Under the pieces are notes generated by a model. That model was not told the origin of the DNA. It saw nothing but the letters and a program-made list of their open reading frames with translations, and made no database searches. A stretch of 64,000 nucleotides of DNA from Candidatus Moraniibacteriota bacterium (GTDB taxonomy: Bacteria > Patescibacteriota > Minisyncoccia > Moranbacterales > UBA1568): contig JAAXXG010000005.1 of assembly GCA_013334575.1 (NCBI GenBank), positions 3,080 to 67,079 on the forward strand, in the 5' to 3' direction. Shown piece after piece: positions 32,897 through 55,995 of this stretch (the first letter of the stretch is position 1; each line of letters opens with the position of its first letter). The position numbers were made by a program, and so were the translations under genes.

Positions 32897-35689
32897 ATGG
32901 CTCTCTGCCACAGCCTCCGCTGCGAACATTCCGTGACGCCGCTTGGCGTCGACGAACCGAATCCGCTTCTCGAATGGCACATCGAAAGCGAACAAGCCGG
33001 CTTTCTTCAGACGGCCTATCGGATTCAGGCAGCCCTTTCGAAGGAAGTCCTCGAACAGGAGCGTGACCTCACATGGGATACGGGAGAGGTCGAATCGTGG
33101 CACACGTTCGATATCCCGTACGAGGGTCTTCCCATCGCAAGCGCGCAACGTTATTTCTGGCGGGTCGCATCCCGGAATCAGGACGGCATATGGACGCCAT
33201 GGAGTAAGACTAGCTGGTGGGAAACCGGCCTTCTCAGGACCGAGGACTGGCACGCAAAGTTCATCGAACCTGGAAAGGAGGACGGCGTCGGCGCCGAGCG
33301 TCCGGCACCATATTTCCGCGCCGTGTTCGATATCGACCAGCCGATCAAGTCCGCAAGGGCATATGTGTCCTGTCACGGCATATATGAACTTTCCCTCAAC
33401 GGAGCACCCGTCGGAGACGCGGTATTCGCTCCGGGGTATACGAATTACCCCGATAGACTCCAATACCAGACCTACGATGTGACGGAATTTGTCCGCTCCG
33501 GAGGCAATGCCGTCGGCATGATTGTCGGCGACGGATGGTACAGAGGACGACTCGGTATCACCTCGCAGCGGGATACGTATGGCACCGTTCTGGGCGCGCT
33601 ACTACACCTCGACATCCTTCATACTGACGGGACTCATACGGTCGTGGCAACCGGGGAGGACTGGAAGTACGCGTTCGGCCCCATCAGAAATTCCGATTTG
33701 AAGGACGGCGAGACCTACGATGCCAGACTGGAATTCGACGGGTGGGATATTTTCGGATTCGATGATTCCGACTGGAAACCGGCTCAAGTCGCCGAACACA
33801 GGCTCGGCACGCTCGTGGCCTCGTCCGCCCCTCCGGTCAGGCGGAAGGAGCGCTTTCGACCGATCAACATCACGAAGTGTTCCCACGACACGTTTCTCCT
33901 CGATTTCGGTCAGAATATCGCCGGACGCGTCCGATTCCGGATTACAGGACCCCGTGGAACACGCGTCCGGATCCGACACGGAGAGACGCTCGACCAGAAC
34001 GGGCGACTCTCGCTCAAACATCTGCAGCCGACCGCGCCAGGCCTCCCGAAACTCCGCCAGGAAGACCTTTACATACTGAAAGGGGATGATTCGGAGGAAT
34101 ATGAGCCGCGATTCACATACCATGGATTCCGCTACGCGGAAGTCTCTGGATGGCCGTCGGACATTCTCGTTGCCGATTCATTCGAAGCGATCGCGATACG
34201 TACCGACTTTGAACGAACGGGCTATTTCCGCTGTTCGGATCCGGACCTGAACCGCCTGTATCGAAACATCCTCTGGAGCATGCGGGGAAATTCCGTCGAT
34301 ATCCCGACGGACTGCCCGACCCGTGAACGATCAGGATGGACCGCGGACGCGCATTTGTTCGCTGCGACTGCCACCTACGCTTACGATACCAGGACTTTCT
34401 ACGAAAAGTGGCTCTCTGACCTTTACTCGGACCAGCATCCGGACGGCCTCGTTCCGGATACGATTCCGGATCCGGGAGGCGCCCGCGCGAACGCCGTTTC
34501 CAGAATAACGGACGGATCATCAGGCTGGGGAGATGCGGCCGTCATCATACCATGGATACTCTATTCGCAAACCGGAGACCACCGAATCCTGGAGCGACAA
34601 TACCGCAGCATGAAGAACTGGGTCGACTACGGGAAAAAAAGGTTGTCGAGAACGGGATGGTCTCACCGGATGAACCCCGTCGAGCGCCTGAACGCATCCC
34701 GAATGCATCGGGAGCCGTATATCCTGGACAGCGGCTATCATTGGGGAGAATGGCTCCGTCCTGGCGAACGAAAGTCAGTCCCTCTCACGATGGGAAAGAA
34801 CATCCTGCTCGATGACCGCAGCGAAAGCGTAGCTGCGACCGCCTATCTGGCACATTCGGCCGACCTCCTCTCGCGCATCGCGAACATACTAGATGTTCCC
34901 GACGACGCCAGACGCTATTCGGAACTGTTCGATCACATTCGAAAGGCGTATTCCGAAGAGTTCATAAGAGATGGCCGCATGAACCCGGACGATCAGTCCG
35001 TGTACGTCAGGACGCTCGCCTTCTCCCTGGCACCCGACGCACTCCGGCCGATGCTTGCGAAGCGGCTCAATGAACTCGTCGAACACGGCGGCTACCATCC
35101 GGATACGGGCTTCCTTTCAACCGCATACCTTCTCGAGGCGCTCAACGATGCCGGATTCGCGGATACCGCCTACCGGCTCCTGAAGACGGACACGTACCCC
35201 TCCTGGCTCCATCAGATCAGAAACGGCGCAACGACCATCTGGGAAAGCTGGGATGGGATAGACAGCAAAGGGCAGGCGCATTTTTCGCACAATCACACGG
35301 CGCTGGGATCCATCGGACGATGGTTTTTCGAATCCATCGCGGGAATAAAGGTCGACGCCACGAAAGATGATCCCACCGTCTTCCGCATCGCTCCCGCTCT
35401 TGGCGGCGGATTGACATATGCCGCCGCGACGTATCATTCGCCATTCGGGATCGTCCGAACACGCTGGGACCTCATGGAAGACCGTTCGGCACGACTCCTT
35501 GTTTCCATCCCGCCAAATACGAGAGCGGAAATCAGCTTTCCAACACAAGATCGAGACACCATAACCGAATCCGGTTTTCCTGTACACGGCCGAAAGGACA
35601 TCCTCCCTATCCGTCGAGAAGAAACGCGATCCGACTACCTTGTCGTAAGCGGCACATATGTCTTCGAGTGGCCGCATGAAAGGAAGTAA
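32897..35689 (+). CDS. alpha-L-rhamnosidase (GH78)
   Basis: 930 aa. The N-terminus matches the rhamnosidase N-domain (..LLEWHIES..QTAYRIQAA..), followed by a six-hairpin catalytic domain and C-terminal domain. Confidence 0.8.
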   Translation: MALCHSLRCEHSVTPLGVDEPNPLLEWHIESEQAGFLQTAYRIQAALSKEVLEQERDLTWDTGEVESWHTFDIPYEGLPIASAQRYFWRVASRNQDGIWTPWSKTSWWETGLLRTEDWHAKFIEPGKEDGVGAERPAPYFRAVFDIDQPIKSARAYVSCHGIYELSLNGAPVGDAVFAPGYTNYPDRLQYQTYDVTEFVRSGGNAVGMIVGDGWYRGRLGITSQRDTYGTVLGALLHLDILHTDGTHTVVATGEDWKYAFGPIRNSDLKDGETYDARLEFDGWDIFGFDDSDWKPAQVAEHRLGTLVASSAPPVRRKERFRPINITKCSHDTFLLDFGQNIAGRVRFRITGPRGTRVRIRHGETLDQNGRLSLKHLQPTAPGLPKLRQEDLYILKGDDSEEYEPRFTYHGFRYAEVSGWPSDILVADSFEAIAIRTDFERTGYFRCSDPDLNRLYRNILWSMRGNSVDIPTDCPTRERSGWTADAHLFAATATYAYDTRTFYEKWLSDLYSDQHPDGLVPDTIPDPGGARANAVSRITDGSSGWGDAAVIIPWILYSQTGDHRILERQYRSMKNWVDYGKKRLSRTGWSHRMNPVERLNASRMHREPYILDSGYHWGEWLRPGERKSVPLTMGKNILLDDRSESVAATAYLAHSADLLSRIANILDVPDDARRYSELFDHIRKAYSEEFIRDGRMNPDDQSVYVRTLAFSLAPDALRPMLAKRLNELVEHGGYHPDTGFLSTAYLLEALNDAGFADTAYRLLKTDTYPSWLHQIRNGATTIWESWDGIDSKGQAHFSHNHTALGSIGRWFFESIAGIKVDATKDDPTVFRIAPALGGGLTYAAATYHSPFGIVRTRWDLMEDRSARLLVSIPPNTRAEISFPTQDRDTITESGFPVHGRKDILPIRREETRSDYLVVSGTYVFEWPHERK

Positions 35690-35692
35690 CTG

Positions 35693-35720
35693 AAAAGACC
35701 CCGGTCAGACGGGGTCTTTT
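35693..35720. terminator. bidirectional intrinsic terminator
   Basis: AAAAGACCCCGGTCAGACGGGGTCTTTT. Confidence 0.7.
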
Positions 35721-35750
35721 CCTTGGATATACGATCGGATCACGGCGATA

Positions 35751-36320
35751 TCAGTCGAGGACGACCTGCGCGACAAGGTGCCGTCGGCCGAACGCAAAGG
35801 CCTCTTTCTTGGTCTCCATGTAGATATCGAAGCGGTTTCCCTTTATCGCGCCGCCGCGATCCTCGCACCGGAAGACCCCGAGCCCGTCGATATCGATCTT
35901 GGCACCGAAAGGAAACTGCGGGGGACATGCGAGCGTACGGTTCTCCGCGACACGGAGACCGGAAGCGGTGACGCCGTCGGACTTTCCGCACTCATCGGCG
36001 GATGCGGTATATGCCGACGCATTTATCTCGAACGCCCCTTCGGGAAGCGCCTCCCAACGGTCAAGCTGCTTCTGCTTCCATCGTGCGAGGATGCGCTCCT
36101 CGGGCGAGGGAGTCGCGCGCTCTTCGGATACGGTCGACCGATCCGCCTCCGGAAGACCGAAGGCCGTCTTCAGCGAAAAGATGTCGTCGATACTCATCCG
36201 AGACGAGCTCTGCCCGTTCGACAGAGCATCGGAACGGTCGTCTACGGATTCGGCATTCGCGGCGTTCGCCCATGACAGGATCACTATCGATAGGACGAAC
36301 GCCAGACGTTTACCATGCAT
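35751..36320 (-). CDS. secreted 3D-domain (RlpA/MltA-like DPBB) protein
   Basis: Signal peptide MHGKRLAFVLSIVILSWANAANA. C-terminus ...GVTASGLRVAENRTLACPP..IDIDGLGVFRCEDRGGAIKGNRFDIYM. Confidence 0.7.
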   Translation of the reverse strand: MHGKRLAFVLSIVILSWANAANAESVDDRSDALSNGQSSSRMSIDDIFSLKTAFGLPEADRSTVSEERATPSPEERILARWKQKQLDRWEALPEGAFEINASAYTASADECGKSDGVTASGLRVAENRTLACPPQFPFGAKIDIDGLGVFRCEDRGGAIKGNRFDIYMETKKEAFAFGRRHLVAQVVLD

Positions 36321-36503
36321 ACGATACTGACAGTGCTTATCCAAGCCCTCCGCTTGGGCCATGCTCCCAGGTTTTTCCGAGCATAACTGACAATGCTAGC
36401 ACATATTTGTAATAATGTCAATATTGCGAAGCAGGGGAAAACACGAAAGAATCATGATATGATTTGAAACAAGCCAAAAAGCATCCTAAGGAGGGGATGA
36501 CCT

Positions 36504-36647
36504 CATGGCAAGAATAGCCCAAAAGCAACGCCACGTCGTTCCTCGCGGAGCCCGGAAGTCCGGGAAGTTTCCGTGCAAATGGCGAGTGTCCGGGAAACGA
36601 TTCCGAATCGTCGAGAGAGCAGATCGGAGCCGAAAGAATCTGGAATG
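36504..36647 (+). CDS. hypothetical small, highly basic protein (47 aa)
   Basis: Strong SD AAGGAGGGG 7 nt upstream, ORF MARIAQKQRHVVPRGARKSGKFPCKWRVSGKRFRIVERADRSRKNLE, then terminator AAAAGCCCTTGAACAAGGGCTTTT. Too short to appear in the supplied six-frame ORF track. Confidence 0.45.
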
Positions 36648-36772
36648 ACCTCGCCAAACCAAAAAGAAAAGCCCTTGAACAAGGGCTTTTCTCACTTATA
36701 CACGGGATATCAACCTTCGGAATCCTCTTATTCGGAATAGTCGAAGCAAAATGCCGGATTCAACGAACGCAG

Positions 36773-36985
36773 CTAGAATTTTCCATCCAGATATTTACCC
36801 GCGACACTGAGTGCAAACGACGGCAGGATGATGAAAACAGTGATCATGAGAAACCGGATAAACATCTCCTGAAGCGGCGTATCGGGCTGATCCGGACCGA
36901 AAGGCCCGATCAGTATCATCGTTATCCCTATGAGACCAAAAGCGATCGAGGCGTAAATAAACACCCTTGTTGCGATCCTTTGCAT
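36773..36985 (-). CDS. hypothetical small membrane protein
   Basis: 70 aa with 2 TM helices, in an AT-rich segment. Confidence 0.3.
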   Translation of the reverse strand: MQRIATRVFIYASIAFGLIGITMILIGPFGPDQPDTPLQEMFIRFLMITVFIILPSFALSVAGKYLDGKF

Positions 36986-37306
36986 GACAAGTCAAAAACA
37001 ATGATTGCACTGATTGTAGCACAAAGAGACACCGGATATGACAGCAAACCCAAAATAAACCCAATTGCCCCTTACGCCCCACGTCCGCAGCGTATCGCCC
37101 CCTCGAACGCGGCAAGCGTATTCTCGGGCGCATATCCGGACGCCTCTCGACGAGCGATAATCGGCATACGCCTATTTTCATAAGCATACGTCCTTCTCCC
37201 TCACAAGTTATGCTCGGAATATTCCGCAAAATATATCCCCCGGCATCCTATATGGACCCGGGGGATAACACATTAGATCCGACCGGCGCCGGATAACCAG
37301 CTTCTT

Positions 37307-38065
37307 CTACCTGGCTCCGAGCGTGATTGCGGGAAGGACCGAATCCTCGATCCGCTTCAATCGCTCGTAACGGTCAGGCTTGCCGAAATCGATTACGTAT
37401 CTGTTCATGCCGACAACGGCATCTACAAGACCTCTTGAAACGAACAACGGAAGCAATTCCCGCTCAAGCGACAGTTGTGATGTCCGTTCGCCGAAAGTCT
37501 CGAAGTTTTCGAGAACAAACCGCCTGTTCATGATATAGCACCCCGTACTACTCGCATTGTCCCAGCGGATCCTCCGTTCACCCTTCCCTTCGTCGAAACC
37601 GATAACTAGATTGTCGCGAACGGTTATCGCTCCGCAGTTCTGCACCATATCGTCATTTTTCGTCAGAACGGCGGTAATCTGGGAGCGTCTCATCACGTGT
37701 ATTTCGGCAATACGACGCACATCCACGTCGCTGACGACGGTATCGCCGTTACATACGAAGATGAGCTCGTTGGACGCCCGGGTAGCTGCAAGGCGGATAG
37801 CACCGCCAGTCCCCAACGGAGACTGCTCTCCGACGACACGAATGCCCATCCCTCTCCAAACCTCCTGTCTGAAAATAGACGAGATGCCATCAGAATTATG
37901 ACCGGCAGCGATGATTATCTCGTTACAGACTCCCATCAACCAGAGCACCTGGTGGACGATGAATGGAGAGCCATTAAATTCGAGAACCGCCTTCGGAACA
38001 CCCTTACAGACTCCCTCCATCCTCGTTCCTAAGCCGCCAGCGAGAATAATGCCCGTTATGCTCAT
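37307..38065 (-). CDS. sugar-phosphate nucleotidyltransferase (NTP_transferase fold)
   Basis: GIILAGGLGTRM N-terminal motif and strong SD GGAGGAGG. A hairpin terminator lies at 37227-37267. Confidence 0.75.
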   Translation of the reverse strand: MSITGIILAGGLGTRMEGVCKGVPKAVLEFNGSPFIVHQVLWLMGVCNEIIIAAGHNSDGISSIFRQEVWRGMGIRVVGEQSPLGTGGAIRLAATRASNELIFVCNGDTVVSDVDVRRIAEIHVMRRSQITAVLTKNDDMVQNCGAITVRDNLVIGFDEGKGERRIRWDNASSTGCYIMNRRFVLENFETFGERTSQLSLERELLPLFVSRGLVDAVVGMNRYVIDFGKPDRYERLKRIEDSVLPAITLGAR

Positions 38066-38472
38066 GTTAAGATCCTCCTCCGTTTAAGGTTCCTTTCGAT
38101 TCGTCTTATACAATTTCTACCCATGTAAAACAACATAATATTATAAATTAATAACTTTTATTTGTCAATATTTTCAGGCACTTCTTACTGTGCAACCGAA
38201 AAGACCGCTTGTTCACCTCATCTTTTTCCTCAACAATTTTCTGCGACACCCGGAATATTCTTGGCTTAGACGGAATCAACCGGAAGGGCTGCAGCGAAAA
38301 CCTCATAATCGGTAGCTATCGCCCCCTTTGGCCCGGAGCAGAGTCTGGAAAATCTGGATTTCCTCACACTCGCTTCTTCCCGTTCGGCTCCAGTTCCCCA
38401 TAAGAAAGAAGAAAAGTCTCATATGAGCCTCTTCTTTCCTTTGGGCTGGGCAGTGGATGCTATTGGAATCCA

Positions 38473-39054
38473 TTATTTGCAAAACAATGCCTTAACCCGC
38501 TCATAATCTTTGAGCACTTCCGTTCTTACTTCGTCAAAAAATATCTTGTCATTGTAATCGCGCTCGATCTTTGAGAGGGCCCATGAGGCAATCTCTTCGG
38601 AAGACTTGCCGGCTCTTCCCATGGCTTCACGCACATAATCATAAAAATTTGTTGACAAGTGAGCGACCGCATCAGCGGTTGCCATGACTTTTCCTTCACT
38701 TGTTACCGGCGCCTTCCCATCGCGACACCCATGGTGATTTATCGCGTCAATTACTGTTGCGATTTCCCGATCTGGAAAACCAGCATCTTTTAATAAGGTT
38801 TCTGCAATTTCCCGACTTCTCTTGGTATGCCTTTCGTCAAAGCGGCTCATCTCAGCATCGGCAATGTCATGAAGCATACCTGCGGCCATGGCCAATTCTT
38901 CCTTTGCGTGGATTTTCTTCGCTATTGCCTCGGCATAATTCACAACGACAAAAACATGGTTTTGGAAAAGCCAATCCGCCCAATCAGCACGATCAGGATT
39001 CTTTGCTTCGTAGAGCTGACAAACTTTTTCTTTCAGGAAATCAATCTTTTTCAT
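38473..39054 (-). CDS. HD-domain phosphohydrolase
   Basis: MLHDIADAE ... HH motifs typical of the HD superfamily. Sits in a lower-GC segment. Confidence 0.65.
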   Translation of the reverse strand: MKKIDFLKEKVCQLYEAKNPDRADWADWLFQNHVFVVVNYAEAIAKKIHAKEELAMAAGMLHDIADAEMSRFDERHTKRSREIAETLLKDAGFPDREIATVIDAINHHGCRDGKAPVTSEGKVMATADAVAHLSTNFYDYVREAMGRAGKSSEEIASWALSKIERDYNDKIFFDEVRTEVLKDYERVKALFCK

Positions 39055-39111
39055 ATATGAAATATATCATGAACATGCTTCCCGTTCGACTTCCAGAACT
39101 CCAGCAAAACT

Positions 39112-39140
39112 AAAAATCACCCCGATGCGGAGTGATTTTT
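39112..39140. terminator. intrinsic terminator following a tRNA-Gly 3' fragment
   Basis: AAAAATCACCCCGATGCGGAGTGATTTTT. It is a paralog of the hairpin at 39403-39428. Confidence 0.6.
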
Positions 39141-39148
39141 AGTTTCCT

Positions 39149-39166
39149 GAGCGGGTAACGGGAGTC
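39149..39166 (-). repeat. 18-nt exact copy of the tRNA-Gly 3' end (acceptor + T-arm half)
   Basis: GAGCGGGTAACGGGAGTC is identical to 39437-39454 of the intact tRNA-Gly gene. Confidence 0.85.
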
Positions 39167-39244
39167 CTCCGTGATCCAACCTGCCTTGACGGCGTGACAG
39201 GCGCGGAGCCAGGGTGCTACACACAGGAAGCGAAATGCATATGA

Positions 39245-39394
39245 GAGGGTAACGGGAGTTTCGTCCTCGGCGCCTGGTGGCGCCTCGTAGTCCGGGGCAG
39301 AGCCGGATACTCGGACTTCCTCGCATCCGTCTACACTCGATTCGCTCGCCTCCGCTCGCATCTCGCTTCTGCCCGTTCGACTCCCGTTACCCTC
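39245..39394. repeat. inverted-repeat element: 15-bp perfect arms (GAGGGTAACGGGAGT / ACTCCCGTTACCCTC) derived from the tRNA-Gly 3' end, enclosing ~120 bp
   Basis: Arms at 39245-39259 and 39380-39394. The interior contains the GGCGCC-TGGT-GGCGCC hairpin. Confidence 0.8.
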
Positions 39395-39402
39395 AGAAAA
39401 CC

Positions 39403-39428
39403 AAAAACTCCCCGAATGGGGAGTTTTG
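39403..39428. terminator. intrinsic terminator downstream of tRNA-Gly
   Basis: AAAACTCCCCGAATGGGGAGTTTT. Confidence 0.6.
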
Positions 39429-39437
39429 GTTCTTTTG

Positions 39438-39509
39438 AGCGGGTAACGGGAGTCGAACCCGTATTTCGTCCTTGGCAAGGACGCGTAATAGCCGCTATAC
39501 GATACCCGC
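39438..39509 (-). tRNA. tRNA-Gly (GCC)
   Basis: Acceptor GCGGGTA/TACCCGC with U73, anticodon loop ttGCCaa, T-loop TTCGACT. Confidence 0.75.
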
Positions 39510-39559
39510 TTACTTCCTGGACATGCTACCGACTTTCCCTCCATCCGGCAAGAGGAGTG

Positions 39560-39771: not shown

Positions 39772-39861
39772 GACTTTCCCCATTATACACGCTTTCTGTG
39801 CACGCTCAAGGACTCGTCCAGCATTCGCCGGACGCCCCGCGAATGCGGGGCGAACCCCGTG

Positions 39862-39935: not shown

Positions 39936-40126
39936 GGCCCATTCAACCGTCAGTATAATCGACCCCGAGAATCATGCAACCCGGACAACGAAAGAGGGTG
40001 GCCTTCCACCCTCGCTGCGTTCGGTTGTTGTCCAGGTGAGCCCGCCTCGCTTCGCTGCGGCCTTCTCGTCCTCCCGCACGTCGAATCGTCGACGTGCTTC
40101 CTGGCCACTCTCACTCCGTTCGATTG

Positions 40127-51664: not shown

Positions 51665-52408
51665 TTATTCACTCGCCTTATCCCCCGCTCCGGAACGGAG
51701 CACGTACCACTGCTGTACGATAGCAAACGCGGTGGAGACGACCCAATACAACGAAAGTGCCGATGGAAACCGGATTCCGATGAACAGAGTCAGAACCGGC
51801 CCCATATAGAGCATCTGCTTGTTCATAATCGTCGCGAAATCCGGCTCCCCGCCATTCTTCGAGGGCTTCTCTTTCCCGTTCTGACCCAGGGAAAGCATCT
51901 TCATCTGATAGAACTGACCTATCGCCGCGAGTACCGCAAACGCGATACTCGGCTTTGCAAGGTCTGCCAATCCGAAGAATGCACCGGAAAGAAGCCCGGG
52001 ATCAGCCACGAAACGGTAGAGAATACCGCCATCGACACGGAATCCGGTCTCCGATATATGCATGATGACGCTGTATATCGTGATCAGGAACACGATCTGG
52101 ATTACGATCGGAAGGCATCCCATCACCGGATTCACTTTGTGTTTCCGATAGAGTTCCATGATTTCACGCGACTGCCGTTCCTTGTCATCCTTGTAACGTT
52201 CCTGGACCTCCTTCATCTTCGGCTGCAGTTCCTGCATCTTCCGCTGCGCCTCGATCTGCTGCTTCGAAAGCGAAAGAAAGACGAGCTTGATAACGAGCGT
52301 CGAAGCGATGATCGCCAGACCGAAATTCGCGACCGGAAACAGTCCGGCAAAAAAGACCAGCAGATTATAGACCGGCTGATACACGAGAGCGGTGAATATC
52401 TCATTCAT
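51665..52408 (-). CDS. yidC: membrane protein insertase YidC (short form)
   Basis: 247 aa with YidC/Oxa1 core helices. Part of the rnpA-yidC-jag operon. Confidence 0.85.
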   Translation of the reverse strand: MNEIFTALVYQPVYNLLVFFAGLFPVANFGLAIIASTLVIKLVFLSLSKQQIEAQRKMQELQPKMKEVQERYKDDKERQSREIMELYRKHKVNPVMGCLPIVIQIVFLITIYSVIMHISETGFRVDGGILYRFVADPGLLSGAFFGLADLAKPSIAFAVLAAIGQFYQMKMLSLGQNGKEKPSKNGGEPDFATIMNKQMLYMGPVLTLFIGIRFPSALSLYWVVSTAFAIVQQWYVLRSGAGDKASE

Positions 52409-52766
52409 ACTGTTTTCGTCCGGAAAAACCGGAATTTATGGCTTTTACAAGCCCTTCAATATCATTCATCGTCGAAACCAGACCCACTCCACCCTCCGGC
52501 TTCCGCTTAAAGGATAGCACTACATACGCATTCGAAGGAAACCCACCAAGAAACGGCTTGATCGATTCGGAGAGGATTCTCCTGGCACGGTTCCGATCGG
52601 TCGCCAGGCGAAAGGTCTTTTTTGCCGAAACACAGGCGATTTTAGTCGTATCATCCACATTGAAAAGGATCCGAGCACTGACGTTTCCGAAGAAAAAGGG
52701 CTTTCCGTAACGAAAAGCCTTCTGCACCGAGAGAGGATTTTTGAGCCGATAAACACGCGGCACCAT
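52401..52766 (-). CDS. rnpA: RNase P protein component
   Basis: 121 aa basic protein (…KKTFRLATDRNRARRILSES…) between rpmH and yidC. Confidence 0.85.
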   Translation of the reverse strand: MVPRVYRLKNPLSVQKAFRYGKPFFFGNVSARILFNVDDTTKIACVSAKKTFRLATDRNRARRILSESIKPFLGGFPSNAYVVLSFKRKPEGGVGLVSTMNDIEGLVKAINSGFSGRKQYE

Positions 52767-52774
52767 ACCGATCC

Positions 52775-52909
52775 CTACACGGACAACTTCTTTCTCCCTT
52801 TCTGCCGGCGGCTCCGGATGACATTCCGACCACCAACCGTACTCATCCGCTCCAAAAACCCGTGACGACGGGTCCTTCTCCTGGTTTTCGGCTGATATGT
52901 ACGCTTCAT
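52775..52909 (-). CDS. rpmH: 50S ribosomal protein L34
   Basis: Hand translation gives [44 protein letters not shown] (44 aa), which is canonical L34. It is below the 60-aa ORF-track cutoff. Confidence 0.9.
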
Positions 52910-53147
52910 AACAGTATATGGATAGAAAACTTTCCCTCTTCGGAGGGTCGAATAACAGGATACTTCATATTTCGTATCTCGTCAATGCCATACCGTTCCC
53001 ACCCGAAACCACTGAAAATATTCGCTCTCTTTCATATGAAATAGCTACTTTCATCTCTTTCAAGACTTCATATCAACTTATACACCTATTATTCACCGGT
53101 CATCGTGACCAGGATATATCCGCGTGTTATAATCTGCATCACGGCAT

Positions 53148-54578
53148 ATGAACCACCAGGAACTCTGGAAATCCGTCCTCGGGCAGATCGAGCTTTCCAT
53201 TTCGAAGGCTAATTTCGTCACCTGGTTCCAGAACACATCGATCCTCTCTATCGAAGACGGATCCGTCGTTATCAGCGTCCCGAACGGATTCGCCAAGGAA
53301 TGGCTTGAAAATAAATATAATCACACCATCATACAGTCGCTCCGCTCGTTTGAAGGAGACGCGGTACGCTCTATACGCTGCGTCATATCCGGCCCACAGA
53401 CCATAAAGAAATCGATCGACGCCATAACACAGCCCGTACAACAGATCGACATCGCTTCGAAATCCTCCCCGCTTCCACCTCGCATACAACCGTTCAATCC
53501 CACCGCTCCCGTCCCTACACCAAAACTGGCGACGGCGATGTTCCATGAATCGAATCTCAATCCGCGATACACTTTCGACGACTACGTCGTCGCCGAAAAC
53601 AACGAACTCGCCCATGCGGCCTGTGTCGCCGTTTCCAGGAATCTCGGTCAACTTTACAATCCGCTCTTCATCTACGGCGGCGTAGGACTCGGGAAAACCC
53701 ACCTCCTCCAGGCACTCGGAAACGAAGTGAAGCGGCAGCACCCTGAAAAGACGATCAAATACATCACTTCCGAGCGTTTCACGAGCGAACTCGTCGATTC
53801 CATCAAGAACCAGAAGACCGACAAGTTCAAGGAATACTACCAGCAGATGGACCTCCTCATCATCGACGACGTCCAGTTTCTTTCCGGCCGGGAAAAGACT
53901 CAGAACGAATTTTTTCACATCTTCAACGCCCTCTACCAGATCAACAAACAGATCGTGATATCAAGCGATCGCCCCCCGAAATCGATTCCTACCCTCGAAG
54001 ACCGTCTCCGATCCCGATTCGAAGGAGGAATGATCACCGATATTAGCCAGCCGAACGAAGAAACCAGACTCGCTATCCTTAAGAAGAAAGTGATCGAAAA
54101 AGGCGTTTCCATAGACGAGGAATCCCTCAGGTTCATCGCGGAAAACATCACCCAGAACATCCGGGAAATCGAAGGGGCGCTTAATCGCGTCATCGCCTAC
54201 TCGGAATTCTACAAGACACCTCCGTCGATATCACTCGTTGAAAAGGTGCTCTCCCAGCTCATTATTCAGAATAAGAAGACCATTAGCACCGAGGATATCG
54301 TTTCAGCTACCGAGAAGCTCTTTTCGGTCACCAAGGACGATCTCCTGAAAAAAGGACGGAAGAAAGGCATCGCACATGCGAGGCAGGTTGCGATGTACCT
54401 CATGCGAAGCGAACTCAGCATGCCGTTCTCCTCGATTGGCGACTATTTCGGTGGACGAGATCATACGACCGCTCTCCATGCATTCGAAAAGATATCCGCC
54501 GACATCGAAAAGAATCTCCGTCTCAAGGGTGATATTTCGACTCTAAAAAATGAGCTGTACCATCAAAATGGTGGATAA
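53148..54578 (+). CDS. dnaA: chromosomal replication initiator DnaA
   Basis: N-terminus MNHQELWKSVLGQIELSIS..., Walker A GGVGLGKTHLL, and C-terminal DNA-binding domain. Confidence 0.95.
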   Translation: MNHQELWKSVLGQIELSISKANFVTWFQNTSILSIEDGSVVISVPNGFAKEWLENKYNHTIIQSLRSFEGDAVRSIRCVISGPQTIKKSIDAITQPVQQIDIASKSSPLPPRIQPFNPTAPVPTPKLATAMFHESNLNPRYTFDDYVVAENNELAHAACVAVSRNLGQLYNPLFIYGGVGLGKTHLLQALGNEVKRQHPEKTIKYITSERFTSELVDSIKNQKTDKFKEYYQQMDLLIIDDVQFLSGREKTQNEFFHIFNALYQINKQIVISSDRPPKSIPTLEDRLRSRFEGGMITDISQPNEETRLAILKKKVIEKGVSIDEESLRFIAENITQNIREIEGALNRVIAYSEFYKTPPSISLVEKVLSQLIIQNKKTISTEDIVSATEKLFSVTKDDLLKKGRKKGIAHARQVAMYLMRSELSMPFSSIGDYFGGRDHTTALHAFEKISADIEKNLRLKGDISTLKNELYHQNGG

Positions 54579-54843
54579 GTTGTGGATTAACCAGGATTCG
54601 ACCTGGAGAGAGCGTGAATAAATAACCGACTTATCTACACAAATAAAATGGATCCTCTCCATATACACCATTCGGTGTATATCGAAAATAGAAACGTGCT
54701 CACGAACCGTACAGAAAAAACACTTCTACGGAGCCAAAAATCGAAAATCTCCACTTATCCACTCCGCTAATAATCATAATAAAATATATATATATAATAT
54801 ATATAATAATACCTATAACCCGTGGAGGGATCAGTATACGTCT
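54570..54843. promoter_or_regulatory. oriC candidate: DnaA boxes and AT-rich DUE in the dnaA-dnaN intergenic region
   Basis: DnaA-box-like 9-mers GGTGGATAA (54569-77), TGTGGATTA (54581-89), TTATCTACA (54630-38) and TTATCCACT (54755-63). AT-rich run with (TA)n at 54775-54815. Confidence 0.7.
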
Positions 54844-55995
54844 ATGAAAATCATCTGTACTCAAGAAAATCTCTCGAAAGCACTGTCTTACCTTGAACGG
54901 GCTACAGGAAAGCAATCGACTTTGCCTATTCTTTCCAACTTCCTTCTCAGAGTCGATCACGGTCGCCTGAAGCTATCTTCGACGAATCTTGAAATCGGGG
55001 TGACTGCGACGGTAAACGCGAAGATCGAGGGGGTGGGTGAGATCGCGGCGCCGGTGAAGATCATATCCAATTTCGTCGGGAATCTTCCTGGGGATGATGT
55101 CGTATCGATCGATGTGCAAGGGAATTCCGTTTCGGTCGCGTCGGGCGGCTATGATATGCGTGTCCGAGGGCTCGATTCGAAAGATTTCCCTATCATTCCG
55201 GAAAGGAAAGGTGAACATTCCTTTCTGCTGCCCGCTCAGGATCTGAAAACGGCCCTGCAGCGCATTCTCCCGTGTGCCTCATCGAATGAAAGTCGCCTGG
55301 AGTTGACCGGTATCAGTATGCAGTTTCTGAAGGGGGAGGTCCACCTTGCTGCGACGGACAGCTTCAGGCTTGCCGAACAGGTTCTCCGTCTTCCAGATGA
55401 TGTCGGATCGGAGGGGTATGAGGTGTTCCGGGATCAGAATCCGTCTCTTATTCTCCCTCATATCACCATGCAGGAGCTTTCCAGGATCATCTCTCCTGAG
55501 ACTGTTTCCGTGTTCGTGGCATTCGAGGAGAATCAGGTGTTTTTCGATATCGACGGGGTATCGATTGTTTCACGGGTTATTAATGGAAAATATCCCGATT
55601 ATAAGCAGATTCTTCCGAAAGAGTTCTCGTATGTCGCCAGACTTTCCCGGGATGAGTTTCTTCGGGCTGTCAGGATGGCGGGAGTATTTGCGTCTCAGAT
55701 GACCGGAGAGATGATGATCGTGGTCTCTCCGGAGAAGGGTGAAGTGCAGGTTTCCGCCAGGTCGTCCGAGATTGGTGAGAATCGTACGGTTATAAAGGCC
55801 GAGGTGTCCGGAGGGGATCCGGTTCAGATCGTCTTTAATCCCCGTTATGTGATTGATGGCTTGAACGCGGTCTCTTCCGAAGTGGTTGCGTTCCTCCTGA
55901 ATTCCTCGTCGACTCCGGCTGGGTTCAGGTCGGTTGGCTCTGACGGGATTGAAGATCCTTTCTTCCTTTATATCGCGATGCCTATCAGGAAATAG
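54844..55995 (+). CDS. dnaN: DNA polymerase III beta sliding clamp
   Basis: MKIICTQENLSKALSYLERATGK... and three-domain clamp length. Confidence 0.93.
   Translation: MKIICTQENLSKALSYLERATGKQSTLPILSNFLLRVDHGRLKLSSTNLEIGVTATVNAKIEGVGEIAAPVKIISNFVGNLPGDDVVSIDVQGNSVSVASGGYDMRVRGLDSKDFPIIPERKGEHSFLLPAQDLKTALQRILPCASSNESRLELTGISMQFLKGEVHLAATDSFRLAEQVLRLPDDVGSEGYEVFRDQNPSLILPHITMQELSRIISPETVSVFVAFEENQVFFDIDGVSIVSRVINGKYPDYKQILPKEFSYVARLSRDEFLRAVRMAGVFASQMTGEMMIVVSPEKGEVQVSARSSEIGENRTVIKAEVSGGDPVQIVFNPRYVIDGLNAVSSEVVAFLLNSSSTPAGFRSVGSDGIEDPFFLYIAMPIRK

Follow-up and report, generated by a model that had tools for sequence, protein, structure and literature searches.

What kind of element stands between the last gene of a bacterial tRNA cluster and the variable DNA behind it, when direct and inverted copies of the 3′ end of that last tRNA recur in the intervening sequence? 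The question is raised by a stretch of 64,000 nucleotides from a Candidatus Moraniibacteriota bacterium (GenBank assembly GCA_013334575.1, contig JAAXXG010000005.1, positions 3,080 to 67,079; hereafter the window, in whose positions all coordinates are given unless a related locus is named), where such copies follow the gene for tRNA-Gly(GCC). An original prediction had proposed that the copies are either the collapsed remnant of an excised genomic island or a miniature inverted-repeat transposable element (MITE) built from tRNA-end arms. The copies delimit a structured unit of 150 nt whose helices are preserved by compensatory changes in related contigs. The interpretation that we favor, and to which we give somewhat better than even chances, is that this unit is a tRNA-trailer element resembling the RtT repeats of the Escherichia coli tyrT operon, that it acts as RNA, and that its tRNA-end repeats drive the gain and loss of units as well as the hotspot behind them.

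A conserved, structured unit behind tRNA-Gly

The tRNA cluster of the window, Leu(gag)-Val(tac)-Phe-Met-Gly(gcc), is encoded on the minus strand, with tRNA-Gly as its last gene. The 19-nt sequence TGAGCGGGTAACGGGAGTC, at 39436-39454, recurs with 100% identity at 39148-39166 (repeat family D1), and a third direct copy of the tRNA 3′ end, 89% identical, occupies 39242-39260. An inverted copy, ACTCCCGTTACCCTC, is found at 39380-39394; it forms 15 uninterrupted base pairs with 39245-39259, and 120 nt separate the two arms. Along the minus strand, the order is tRNA-Gly, a terminator-like hairpin (T1), the 150-nt unit (39394 to 39245), a partial second unit, a further hairpin (T2), the restart of another unit, and a gene for an HD-domain protein. 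Directly after T1, the unit begins with GAGGGTAACGGGAGTCGAAC, the reverse complement of the tRNA from its T-loop through the T-stem to the acceptor 3′ strand; an interior of approximately 105 nt follows, then the slightly altered tRNA-end copy that closes the unit and that reads ACTCCCGTTACCCTC on this strand, then 77 nt, and then, just ahead of T2, the perfect 19-nt copy, GACTCCCGTTACCCGCTCA. The exact 13-mer GGGTAACGGGAGT occurs four times within approximately 300 bp and is absent from the remainder of the window, while the chance expectation for a given 13-mer is approximately 0.002 occurrences in 128 kb of sequence. The features described by the original prediction, namely the repeated tRNA end, its degenerate third copy, the 15-bp perfect stem around some 120 nt and the hairpin GGCGCC-TGGT-GGCGCC (39269-39284), are all present at the positions it gave, far beyond chance.

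Hairpin T1 has the form of an intrinsic terminator, a G+C-rich hairpin followed by a run of T. It is the center of an 84-nt palindrome (39375-39458; I1/I2) that the original prediction did not list: on one side of T1 stands the tRNA 3′ end, on the other the 5′ arm of the unit, and the inverted copy here reaches 26 nt. The two hairpins had been predicted to be paired, near-identical terminators. Both exist, but their near-identity was overstated: the proximal and distal blocks of tRNA-end copy plus hairpin share 81% identity, with the 19-nt tRNA end identical and the hairpins diverged, and T2 failed the same terminator scan that T1 passed. T2 and the copy at 39148-39166 are probably the ancestral trailer of the tRNA, which consists of GCTCAGG, a hairpin and the HD gene, as in the related locus L004 (L-numbers denote the related contigs and loci that were compared with the window).

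Units of this kind lie on the strand of the tRNA, 21-50 nt behind it, and follow one plan. The start of each is the reverse complement of the 3′ portion of the tRNA (T-loop, T-stem and acceptor 3′ strand), and its end is a direct copy of that same portion. Pairing of these arms gives a helix of 12-15 bp that copies the stacked acceptor and T stems and encloses several covarying helices. In the type present behind tRNA-Gly of the window, designated G1, the 5′ arm (39380-39394) and the 3′ arm (39245-39259) build the outer helix, P1, and P2 to P5 are nested inside it. P5 (helix 6 in the pair-count table) is the GGCGCC hairpin, and it covaries across sequences as GCGCC/GGCGC, ACACC/GGTGT and GTGTC/GACAC. 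The RNA fold z-score of the window unit is -5.6, and the covariance model of the type, R1, scores 169 bits on the minus strand versus 19 on the plus strand. Built on 5 sequences, R1 recovers the remaining ones at 64-144 bits; its matches lie behind tRNA-Gly in the window, L002, L135, L157, L172, L184 and L008, and 1.4 kb downstream of tRNA-Gly in L206 (1471-1631). Over the alignment of 8 G1 sequences, 95.1% of the cells pair, versus 87.3% after shuffling and 36-41% when the partners were slid, and 16 of the 42 pairs have changed on both sides, a count reached by none of 500 shuffles; helix 1 reaches 99% pairing. G-U pairs are more frequent than A-C mismatches, at 20:5 in G1 and 34:15 in a second type, G2 (54:20 combined), and every model match with an identifiable tRNA lies on the strand of that tRNA. 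Together, the G-U excess and this placement point to a structure formed by the single sense strand.

The 5′ arm has two possible partners, the tRNA end on the other side of T1 and the distal copy. In L184, the outer helix carries A-U where the others carry G-C, as both the 5′ arm and the distal copy have changed, and the tRNA keeps its C. On sequence comparison, this favors the unit-closing helix as the selected pairing, and selection on the outer helix itself. In L002, the helix is kept by three G-U pairs. The G1 unit also appears to have been built from tRNA parts: a 13-mer, 39259-39271, likewise not listed by the original prediction, shares 92% identity with the anticodon-stem and variable region of tRNA-Gly (D5), and the last 30 nt or so of the unit correspond to the 3′ strand of the anticodon stem and the variable region, fused to the 3′ strand of the T-stem with 11 bases gone.

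Other origins of the arms were considered and rejected. As a primer-binding site for a CCA-tailed tRNA, the 5′ arm should match TGG plus the tRNA, and the arms instead match the genomic trailer (TGAG..., TTGCTAGC...). A copy of the tRNA 5′ strand was rejected for tRNA-Leu of L005: at a position where this tRNA contributes G to a G-U pair, the arm has A. The window arm matches the reverse complement of the T-loop at 8 of 8 positions. No self-cleaving ribozyme core (hammerhead-like CUGAUGA/GAAA) was seen by eye or matched in Rfam, and Rfam searches of the window at gathering scores, and of 39050-39520 and L005 1700-3320 at lenient thresholds, returned tRNAs and chance hairpin matches only.

Comparison with relatives separates the unit from the DNA that follows it. 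The close relative L002 (GCA_013336155.1), whose HD protein is 96% identical, shares the tRNA, T1 and the 150-nt unit, which carries two substitutions and a change of CCC to TTT in the 3′ arm, with the pairing kept as G-U. The unit is retained, and the loci differ downstream of it alone: an insert of 1.9 kb, encoding a 273-aa protein without family assignment and a TrmB-like regulator, replaces the 77-nt partial-unit interior of the window and most of the distal 19-nt copy, and T2 and the HD gene follow. No homology was found between the 77-nt segment and this insert. In L184, the unit and the 77-nt segment precede 4.7 kb of cargo, including a LexA-like helix-turn-helix gene and a 1072-aa Dsr1-like protein (PADLOC, E=2e-33), after which a second unit and segment occur; the partial second unit (segment B) is kept after the first unit twice in L184, and it is also kept in the 3′ half of the tRNA-Gly element of L005. 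L005 and L006, whose HD proteins are 60% identical, possess a 135-nt element whose arms match the tRNA-Gly of these loci, and 1.2 kb of small open reading frames (ORFs) come after it. L172 has the unit and lacks the whole block from the HD gene to the rhamnosidase (GH78 rhamnosidase, nucleoside triphosphate (NTP) transferase and HD). In the distant L004 (HD 61% identical), the tRNA is followed by one terminator and the HD gene, and the element is absent.

The region from tRNA-Gly to tRNA-Cys/Leu(taa) (32897-39054 in the window) has a different gene content in every relative examined. Since the unit is shared and the flanking genes differ, it is the unit that is stable and the gene content behind it that is variable. 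A variable spot, as implied by the original prediction, is borne out by the DNA behind tRNA-Gly in L002, L184, L172 and L004. A collapsed island, however, does not agree with a unit that is uniform in size and conserved in 8 contigs with compensatory changes, and for which no integrase or transposase domain was found in ORFs of at least 150 aa over 17.9-60 kb or in the cargo of relatives. Recurrence of the same repeats in relatives had been named beforehand as evidence against a mobile origin, and for the unit itself such recurrence is largely what was found.

Related units behind other tRNA genes

Of the 256 distinct tRNAs of the related contigs, 34 are followed at 30-300 nt by a duplicate of their own 3′ end, and no such duplicate lies upstream of any. 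In most of these 34 cases, the distance from the tRNA to the start of the distal copy is 160-180 nt; the cases on tRNA-Gly had been selected by the search pattern, and the 9 on other tRNAs had not. A metagenome scan anchored on the tRNA-Gly end provided 120 more loci, in which these tRNAs were counted. Synteny around HD homologues was useful for close relatives alone; most of the 80 genome loci have no tRNA beside the HD gene. At HD-homologue loci, many tRNAs have a copy of their own 3′ end 110-180 nt downstream, including tRNA-Leu, -Val, -Phe and -Gly (L005), -His (L032, L080), -Ser (L037) and -Gln (L056, L058). The direct copy begins in the T-loop and extends a few bases beyond the gene, and the loci share one fold layout: tRNA, hairpin or short spacer, 5′ arm, two to four hairpins, 3′ arm. 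Literature searches for a prior description in Patescibacteria gave nothing relevant.

The second interior type, G2, is found behind tRNA-Gly(tcc/ccc), Leu(gag), Val(tac), Ser(gct) and Gln, and its 3′ end matches the upstream tRNA every time. Over 17 G2 sequences, 89.5% of the cells pair, versus 63.9% after shuffling, and 42 of the 45 pairs are compensatory. The 5′ arm of G2 is interrupted by a hairpin with the conserved loop AACUGCUU, and its junctions carry the motifs GAGAA-GCC-G-GA ... GA-GGC-GGGGUCG ... GUGACCGA. The number of units differs between close strains: the Leu-Val spacer of L002 (1-363) holds at least one extra complete G2 unit of 136 nt relative to the window, with flanks that are 100% identical, and the L002 contig begins within this array. 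Further interiors share the motif GGGGTCGGG-hairpin-CCCGT(G/T)GA(A/G)GG (L005 2603-2870, L137, L152, L156, L058) and are located behind tRNA-Phe in L005 and behind tRNA-Gly or tRNA-Gln elsewhere. A duplication of a different and much shorter kind occurs in L054 (2867-3040), where tRNA-Ser(gga) is followed, only 33 nt on, by 42 nt that repeat its variable arm, T arm and acceptor end in direct orientation.

RtT repeats and the competing explanations

Among known elements, the RtT repeat of the E. coli tyrT operon comes closest to the unit. In E. coli K-12 (NC_000913.3), tyrT and tyrV are followed by rttR and tpr, and six copies of the 19-nt 3′ end of tRNA-Tyr stand at a spacing of approximately 178 nt over tyrT-tyrV-rttR. 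Each unit there contains GGGGAAGGAT-GAGAA, the reverse complement of ATCCTTCCCC, and the consensus of the Rfam family RtT (RF00391) pairs these two arms (GgGaaGGAU/AUCCuuCcC) around internal hairpins. The Patescibacteria units likewise measure approximately 130-180 nt, occupy trailers or spacers of tRNA operons on the same strand as the tRNA, form tandem arrays, and have a terminal copy of the tRNA 3′ end that forms an outer helix with an upstream complement; GAGAA follows the 5′ arm in both the E. coli units and type G2. They differ from RtT in the phylum of the host, in their interior folds, and in the terminator-like hairpin that here usually precedes the first unit. Furthermore, the Patescibacteria design occurs behind many tRNA species and with at least three interior types, whereas RtT is, to our knowledge, known for tRNA-Tyr of enterobacteria alone. 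No small ORF resembling tpr was noticed here, where no search aimed at one was made. The 178-bp repeat structure at tyrT was reportedly described by Egan and Landy in 1978 and by Rossi et al. in 1981.

This parallel suggests how the unit might function. It would be transcribed with the tRNA operon by read-through of T1, and its RNA would fold on the tRNA-sense strand, with a closing helix that mimics the acceptor and T stems of tRNA-Gly. Because the 3′ end of the unit resembles that of a tRNA, the enzymes of tRNA-end maturation could release the unit RNA, and the copying of the stacked acceptor and T stems by the outer helix makes such release plausible. In this respect, the unit would resemble the tRNA-like minihelix RNAs that tRNA-processing enzymes release, such as mascRNA from MALAT1, and viral tRNA-like structures; it differs from them in having no T-loop/D-loop elbow, and the window helix extends across the discriminator base.

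The rtT RNA of E. coli, 171 nt long, is reported to be released by tRNA-end maturation. It arises from one repeat unit (Bosl & Kersten 1991, cited in PMC3318445), and a part for it in the stringent response is suspected, though unproven (bioRxiv 10.1101/2024.07.17.603846).

At the level of DNA, the repeated tRNA ends would serve as substrates for homologous recombination, leading to the gain and loss of units. Such recombination would be the simplest cause of the turnover of units, and the repeated ends would also explain the differing gene content behind tRNA-Gly. The 5′ arm probably arose by inverted duplication across the terminator hairpin, since it mirrors the tRNA end across the terminator and a complete version of such an arrangement is seen in L106 (1-140), where two complete, convergent genes for tRNA-Gly(GCC) share one terminator in a perfect large palindrome. 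L106 would then represent the intact form.

An RtT-like RNA must nevertheless be weighed against a miniature mobile DNA element that inserts at tRNA 3′ ends, an alternative that we consider unlikely but that retains real weight. Such an element would depend on a recombinase supplied in trans, or would integrate as a folded single-stranded hairpin, like the CTX phage or integron attC sites; it would supply a tRNA end and terminator of its own, pushing aside the existing pair, and would leave the copies as attL and attR and the arm helix as the substrate. The direct repeats do have the classic extent of an att core, beginning in the T-loop and stopping a few bases beyond the tRNA (for background see PMC9897764), the copies adjoin variable cargo, the distal copy with T2 resembles the single-copy state of L004, and the order of tRNA end, spacer, inverted copy, interior and direct copy is that expected after hairpin integration. 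In L157 and L116, perfect repeats of 57-70 nt, comprising the tRNA end and the whole terminator, stand on either side of the interior, as would fit the integration of a circle of approximately 188 nt. One interior type is present behind five tRNA species, and L128 has two units of different type in tandem. Direct tRNA 3′ repeats flank an insert as in an integrated element, but no linked recombinase was found: no integrase, transposase, HUH or Y1 domain was detected within 20 kb, the distance over which the original prediction had suggested testing related strains for integrase genes, nor in the cargo of L002 and L184, and Pfam searches of ORFs of at least 150 aa over 17.9-60 kb gave no integrase, resolvase or transposase domain (5 of these ORFs have no Pfam match). 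A classical integrase, moreover, could not serve five tRNA cores while leaving each tRNA intact. Searches with R1 and R2 (the G2 model) over the window and approximately 1.5 Mb of related DNA gave copies at tRNA trailers or in the same hotspot only, the copies away from a tRNA (window 38263-38399, L184 8747-8858, L206 1471-1631) all being inside the hotspot, and viral contigs scanned for the interior start and the tRNA-Gly end gave chance coding hits and an unrelated phage tRNA rather than copies. The window and L005, with HD proteins approximately 60% identical, share element types behind the same tRNAs, which implies long vertical persistence, and a multi-helix interior with conserved junctions exceeds what a recombination hairpin needs. 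The known systems diverge in the same manner. Like attL/attR pairs and the integrase-less remnants termed CIME (cis-mobilizable elements), the locus has a direct tRNA 3′ copy starting in the T-loop and a hotspot of variable cargo, but here the unit is structured and of fixed size, no integrase was found, an inverted copy is always present, and the same interior type recurs behind different tRNAs. Like MITEs and REPINs, the unit is short, non-coding and extragenic beside terminators, with perfect terminal inverted repeats (the 15-bp arms), and to this extent the predicted MITE-like element survives as a discrete unit with tRNA-end arms. Unlike them, its arms copy the neighboring tRNA, its strand is fixed by that tRNA, its flanking repeats are tRNA-derived and 15-70 nt long instead of short target-site duplications, and in the 1.5 Mb it is not dispersed. 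The CTX attP hairpin and attC sites, finally, also comprise inverted target-like copies that fold into a duplex mimicking the site, with structure conserved above sequence, but here neither an enzyme nor a target of the Xer or IntI type is linked to the unit, the target-like sequence is that of a tRNA end, and the interior has several helices.

The repeats could also be non-functional debris, left by fold-back inverted and tandem duplication at a highly transcribed tRNA gene and subsequently decaying, although this seems quite improbable. The tyrT repeats of E. coli likely originated by rearrangement of this type, which would account for the inverted tRNA-Gly pair of L106, for the mirror register of the 5′ arm and the tRNA end across T1, for the decayed tRNA-Gly pieces within the unit, and for the frequency of truncated units, such as those at 39076-39096 and 39990-40104 and the tRNA-Val copy. 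It is disfavored by the covariation, as neutral decay would not keep six helices by compensatory change over the 8 G1 and 17 G2 sequences, and also by the unit length, held at 160-180 nt, and by the recurrence of the same interior behind different tRNAs. Even less credence can be given to a cis-regulatory leader or attenuator of the HD gene that senses tRNA-Gly through complementarity to its 3′ end, a role that we judge very improbable. The element does sit between the tRNA and the HD gene, an HD gene likewise follows a tRNA and element in L056 and L008, and the 5′ arm has alternative pairings with the tRNA end and the distal copy. Yet units also lie between tRNA genes (Leu-Val and Val-Phe in L005, Leu-Val in the window) and before unrelated genes, which is the reason for disfavoring this role; L172 has the unit and no HD gene, and T2 separates the unit from the HD gene, with 1.9 kb between them in L002.

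Several observations weigh against the RtT-like reading itself. Homology with RtT is undetectable in either direction as judged from sequence and covariance models: RF00391, which scores 133-137 bits on the E. coli positive control, has no match in the window at its gathering score, in 39050-39520 at E<=10, or in L005 1700-3320 at E<=1, and R2 has no match at the E. coli locus at E<=1. For this reason, the window element is described as RtT-like in its working and is not filed in the RtT family. The pair-count alignments were fitted to the models, and their sequences are few (8 G1 and 17 G2) and related. A single-stranded DNA intermediate could also benefit from a conserved structure and a G-T bias, and the outer helix of the window also spans the discriminator base and trailer bases, which makes it less than a clean mimic of the acceptor end. 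Transcription and processing are proposed by analogy alone, and a good terminator-like hairpin, T1, precedes the unit, with no room for a promoter of its own; were T1 efficient, the unit would stay untranscribed. Furthermore, for a single interior type with arms that fit different tRNAs, some form of mobility would be a natural explanation. On either side, the interiors always adjoin T-loop-derived sequence, and one idea suggested by this arrangement is that interiors are exchanged through the universal T-loop and might reach matching arms by that route. It is the position of T1 before a conserved unit, together with the tRNA-matched arms of one interior, that keeps mobile DNA in consideration.

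Neighboring features and the meaning of the elements

The features of the locus are collected in Table 1; the pieces at 39076-39096, 38263-38399, 39990-40104 and 39798-39815 add to those of the original prediction.

Table 1. Features of the tRNA-Gly locus and its surroundings in the window
Feature	Position	Strand	Basis and remarks
tRNA-Gly(GCC)	39437-39509	-	ARAGORN; Rfam tRNA, 60.6 bits; last 19 nt are the repeated sequence
Terminator-like hairpin T1	39395-39436 (core 39404-39427)	-	Terminator scan match on both strands; flanked by A-run and T-run
Complete G1 unit	39245-39394	-	42 nt behind tRNA-Gly; covariance model R1, fold, pair counts
Partial second unit (segment B)	39148-39244	-	Family D1; ends in perfect 19-nt tRNA copy
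Terminator-like hairpin T2	39107-39145	-	18-nt arms, 94% complementary (I3)
Degenerate unit restart, CTGGAAGTCGAACGGGAAGCA	39076-39096	-	Arm end and interior start; broken off before HD gene
HD-domain gene	38473-39054	-	Pfam HD, E=1.7e-10; first gene of variable block
Hairpin T3 and short paralogous unit	38402-38442 (T3); 38263-38399 (unit)	-	Behind HD gene, not tRNA-adjacent
Partial tRNA-Val 3′-end copy, GAGTCCTTGAGCGTGCAC	39798-39815	-	46 nt behind tRNA-Val; spacer sequence
Truncated G2 unit in tRNA-Leu to tRNA-Val spacer	39990-40104	-	Model R2, 30.5 bits, E=4.4e-5

The short unit behind the HD gene is detected by nhmmer at E=0.016 in the window and at 5.5e-7 for its counterpart in L002 (3700-3900). 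It ends in a foreign sequence, GGTTGATTCCGTC, which resembles the T-arm of another tRNA. The HD gene is flanked on both sides by modules of hairpin, arm and interior start, an arrangement reminiscent of a cassette. Within the tRNA cluster, the truncated G2 unit contains a degenerate copy of the tRNA-Leu 3′ end at 40027-40040. The tRNA-Val copy has the T-stem strand CCTTG, which is unlike that of the present tRNA-Val (CTCTC) and the same as that of tRNA-Val in L005; it also overlaps the -35 element of a promoter-like TTGAGC-16-TATAAT (39782-39809, minus strand) before tRNA-Phe.

The closest homologues of the HD protein carry the names Candidatus Moranbacteria and Patescibacteria. Downstream of the HD gene lies the NTP-transferase gene (37307-38065), preceded by a perfect sigma-70 consensus promoter, TTGACA-17-TATAAT, which lies in the AT-rich spacer before the gene (38140-38168, minus strand). 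As the original prediction had noted, these downstream genes are of lower G+C content, lying in DNA of 45-53% G+C against a background of 55-61%. The Logan assembly L001 represents the same contig end and is broken inside the repeats.

At a wider scale, the window has approximately 58% G+C, which is high for a Patescibacterium, with islands of 44-50% at 17-19, 29-31, 36-39, 52-55 and 59-61 kb, and a protein with a type IV secretion system (T4SS) pilin domain, typical of Patescibacteria, is encoded in the neighborhood. The genes yidC, dnaA and dnaN lie together at 51665-55995, and the cumulative GC-skew has its minimum at approximately 54-55 kb; the replication origin is therefore probably located some 14 kb from the tRNA cluster.

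For work on similar loci, these results caution that a partial tRNA copy is not automatically an att scar or the sign of a lost island. The repeats explain why assemblies break at such loci, and they would explain the hotspot behind tRNA-Gly, which in one relative contains the Dsr1-like defense gene. More tentatively, and as a suggestion that we would rate as possible rather than probable, the units may constitute an undescribed class of Patescibacteria RNAs that are RtT-like and mimic tRNA ends, with at least three interior families, a closing helix set by the neighboring tRNA, and interiors that move between trailers via the T-loop. Members of such a class might act as tRNA-specific decoys or regulators of processing, charging or stress signaling, or might be self-propagating modules that copy tRNA ends. 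The two alignments and their covariance models now make the elements searchable and testable. RtT has stood for decades as an unexplained oddity of one enterobacterial tRNA operon; the appearance of the same design in a distant phylum of small genomes, behind many tRNAs and with covarying interiors, suggests that it is a general, selected solution rather than an accident.

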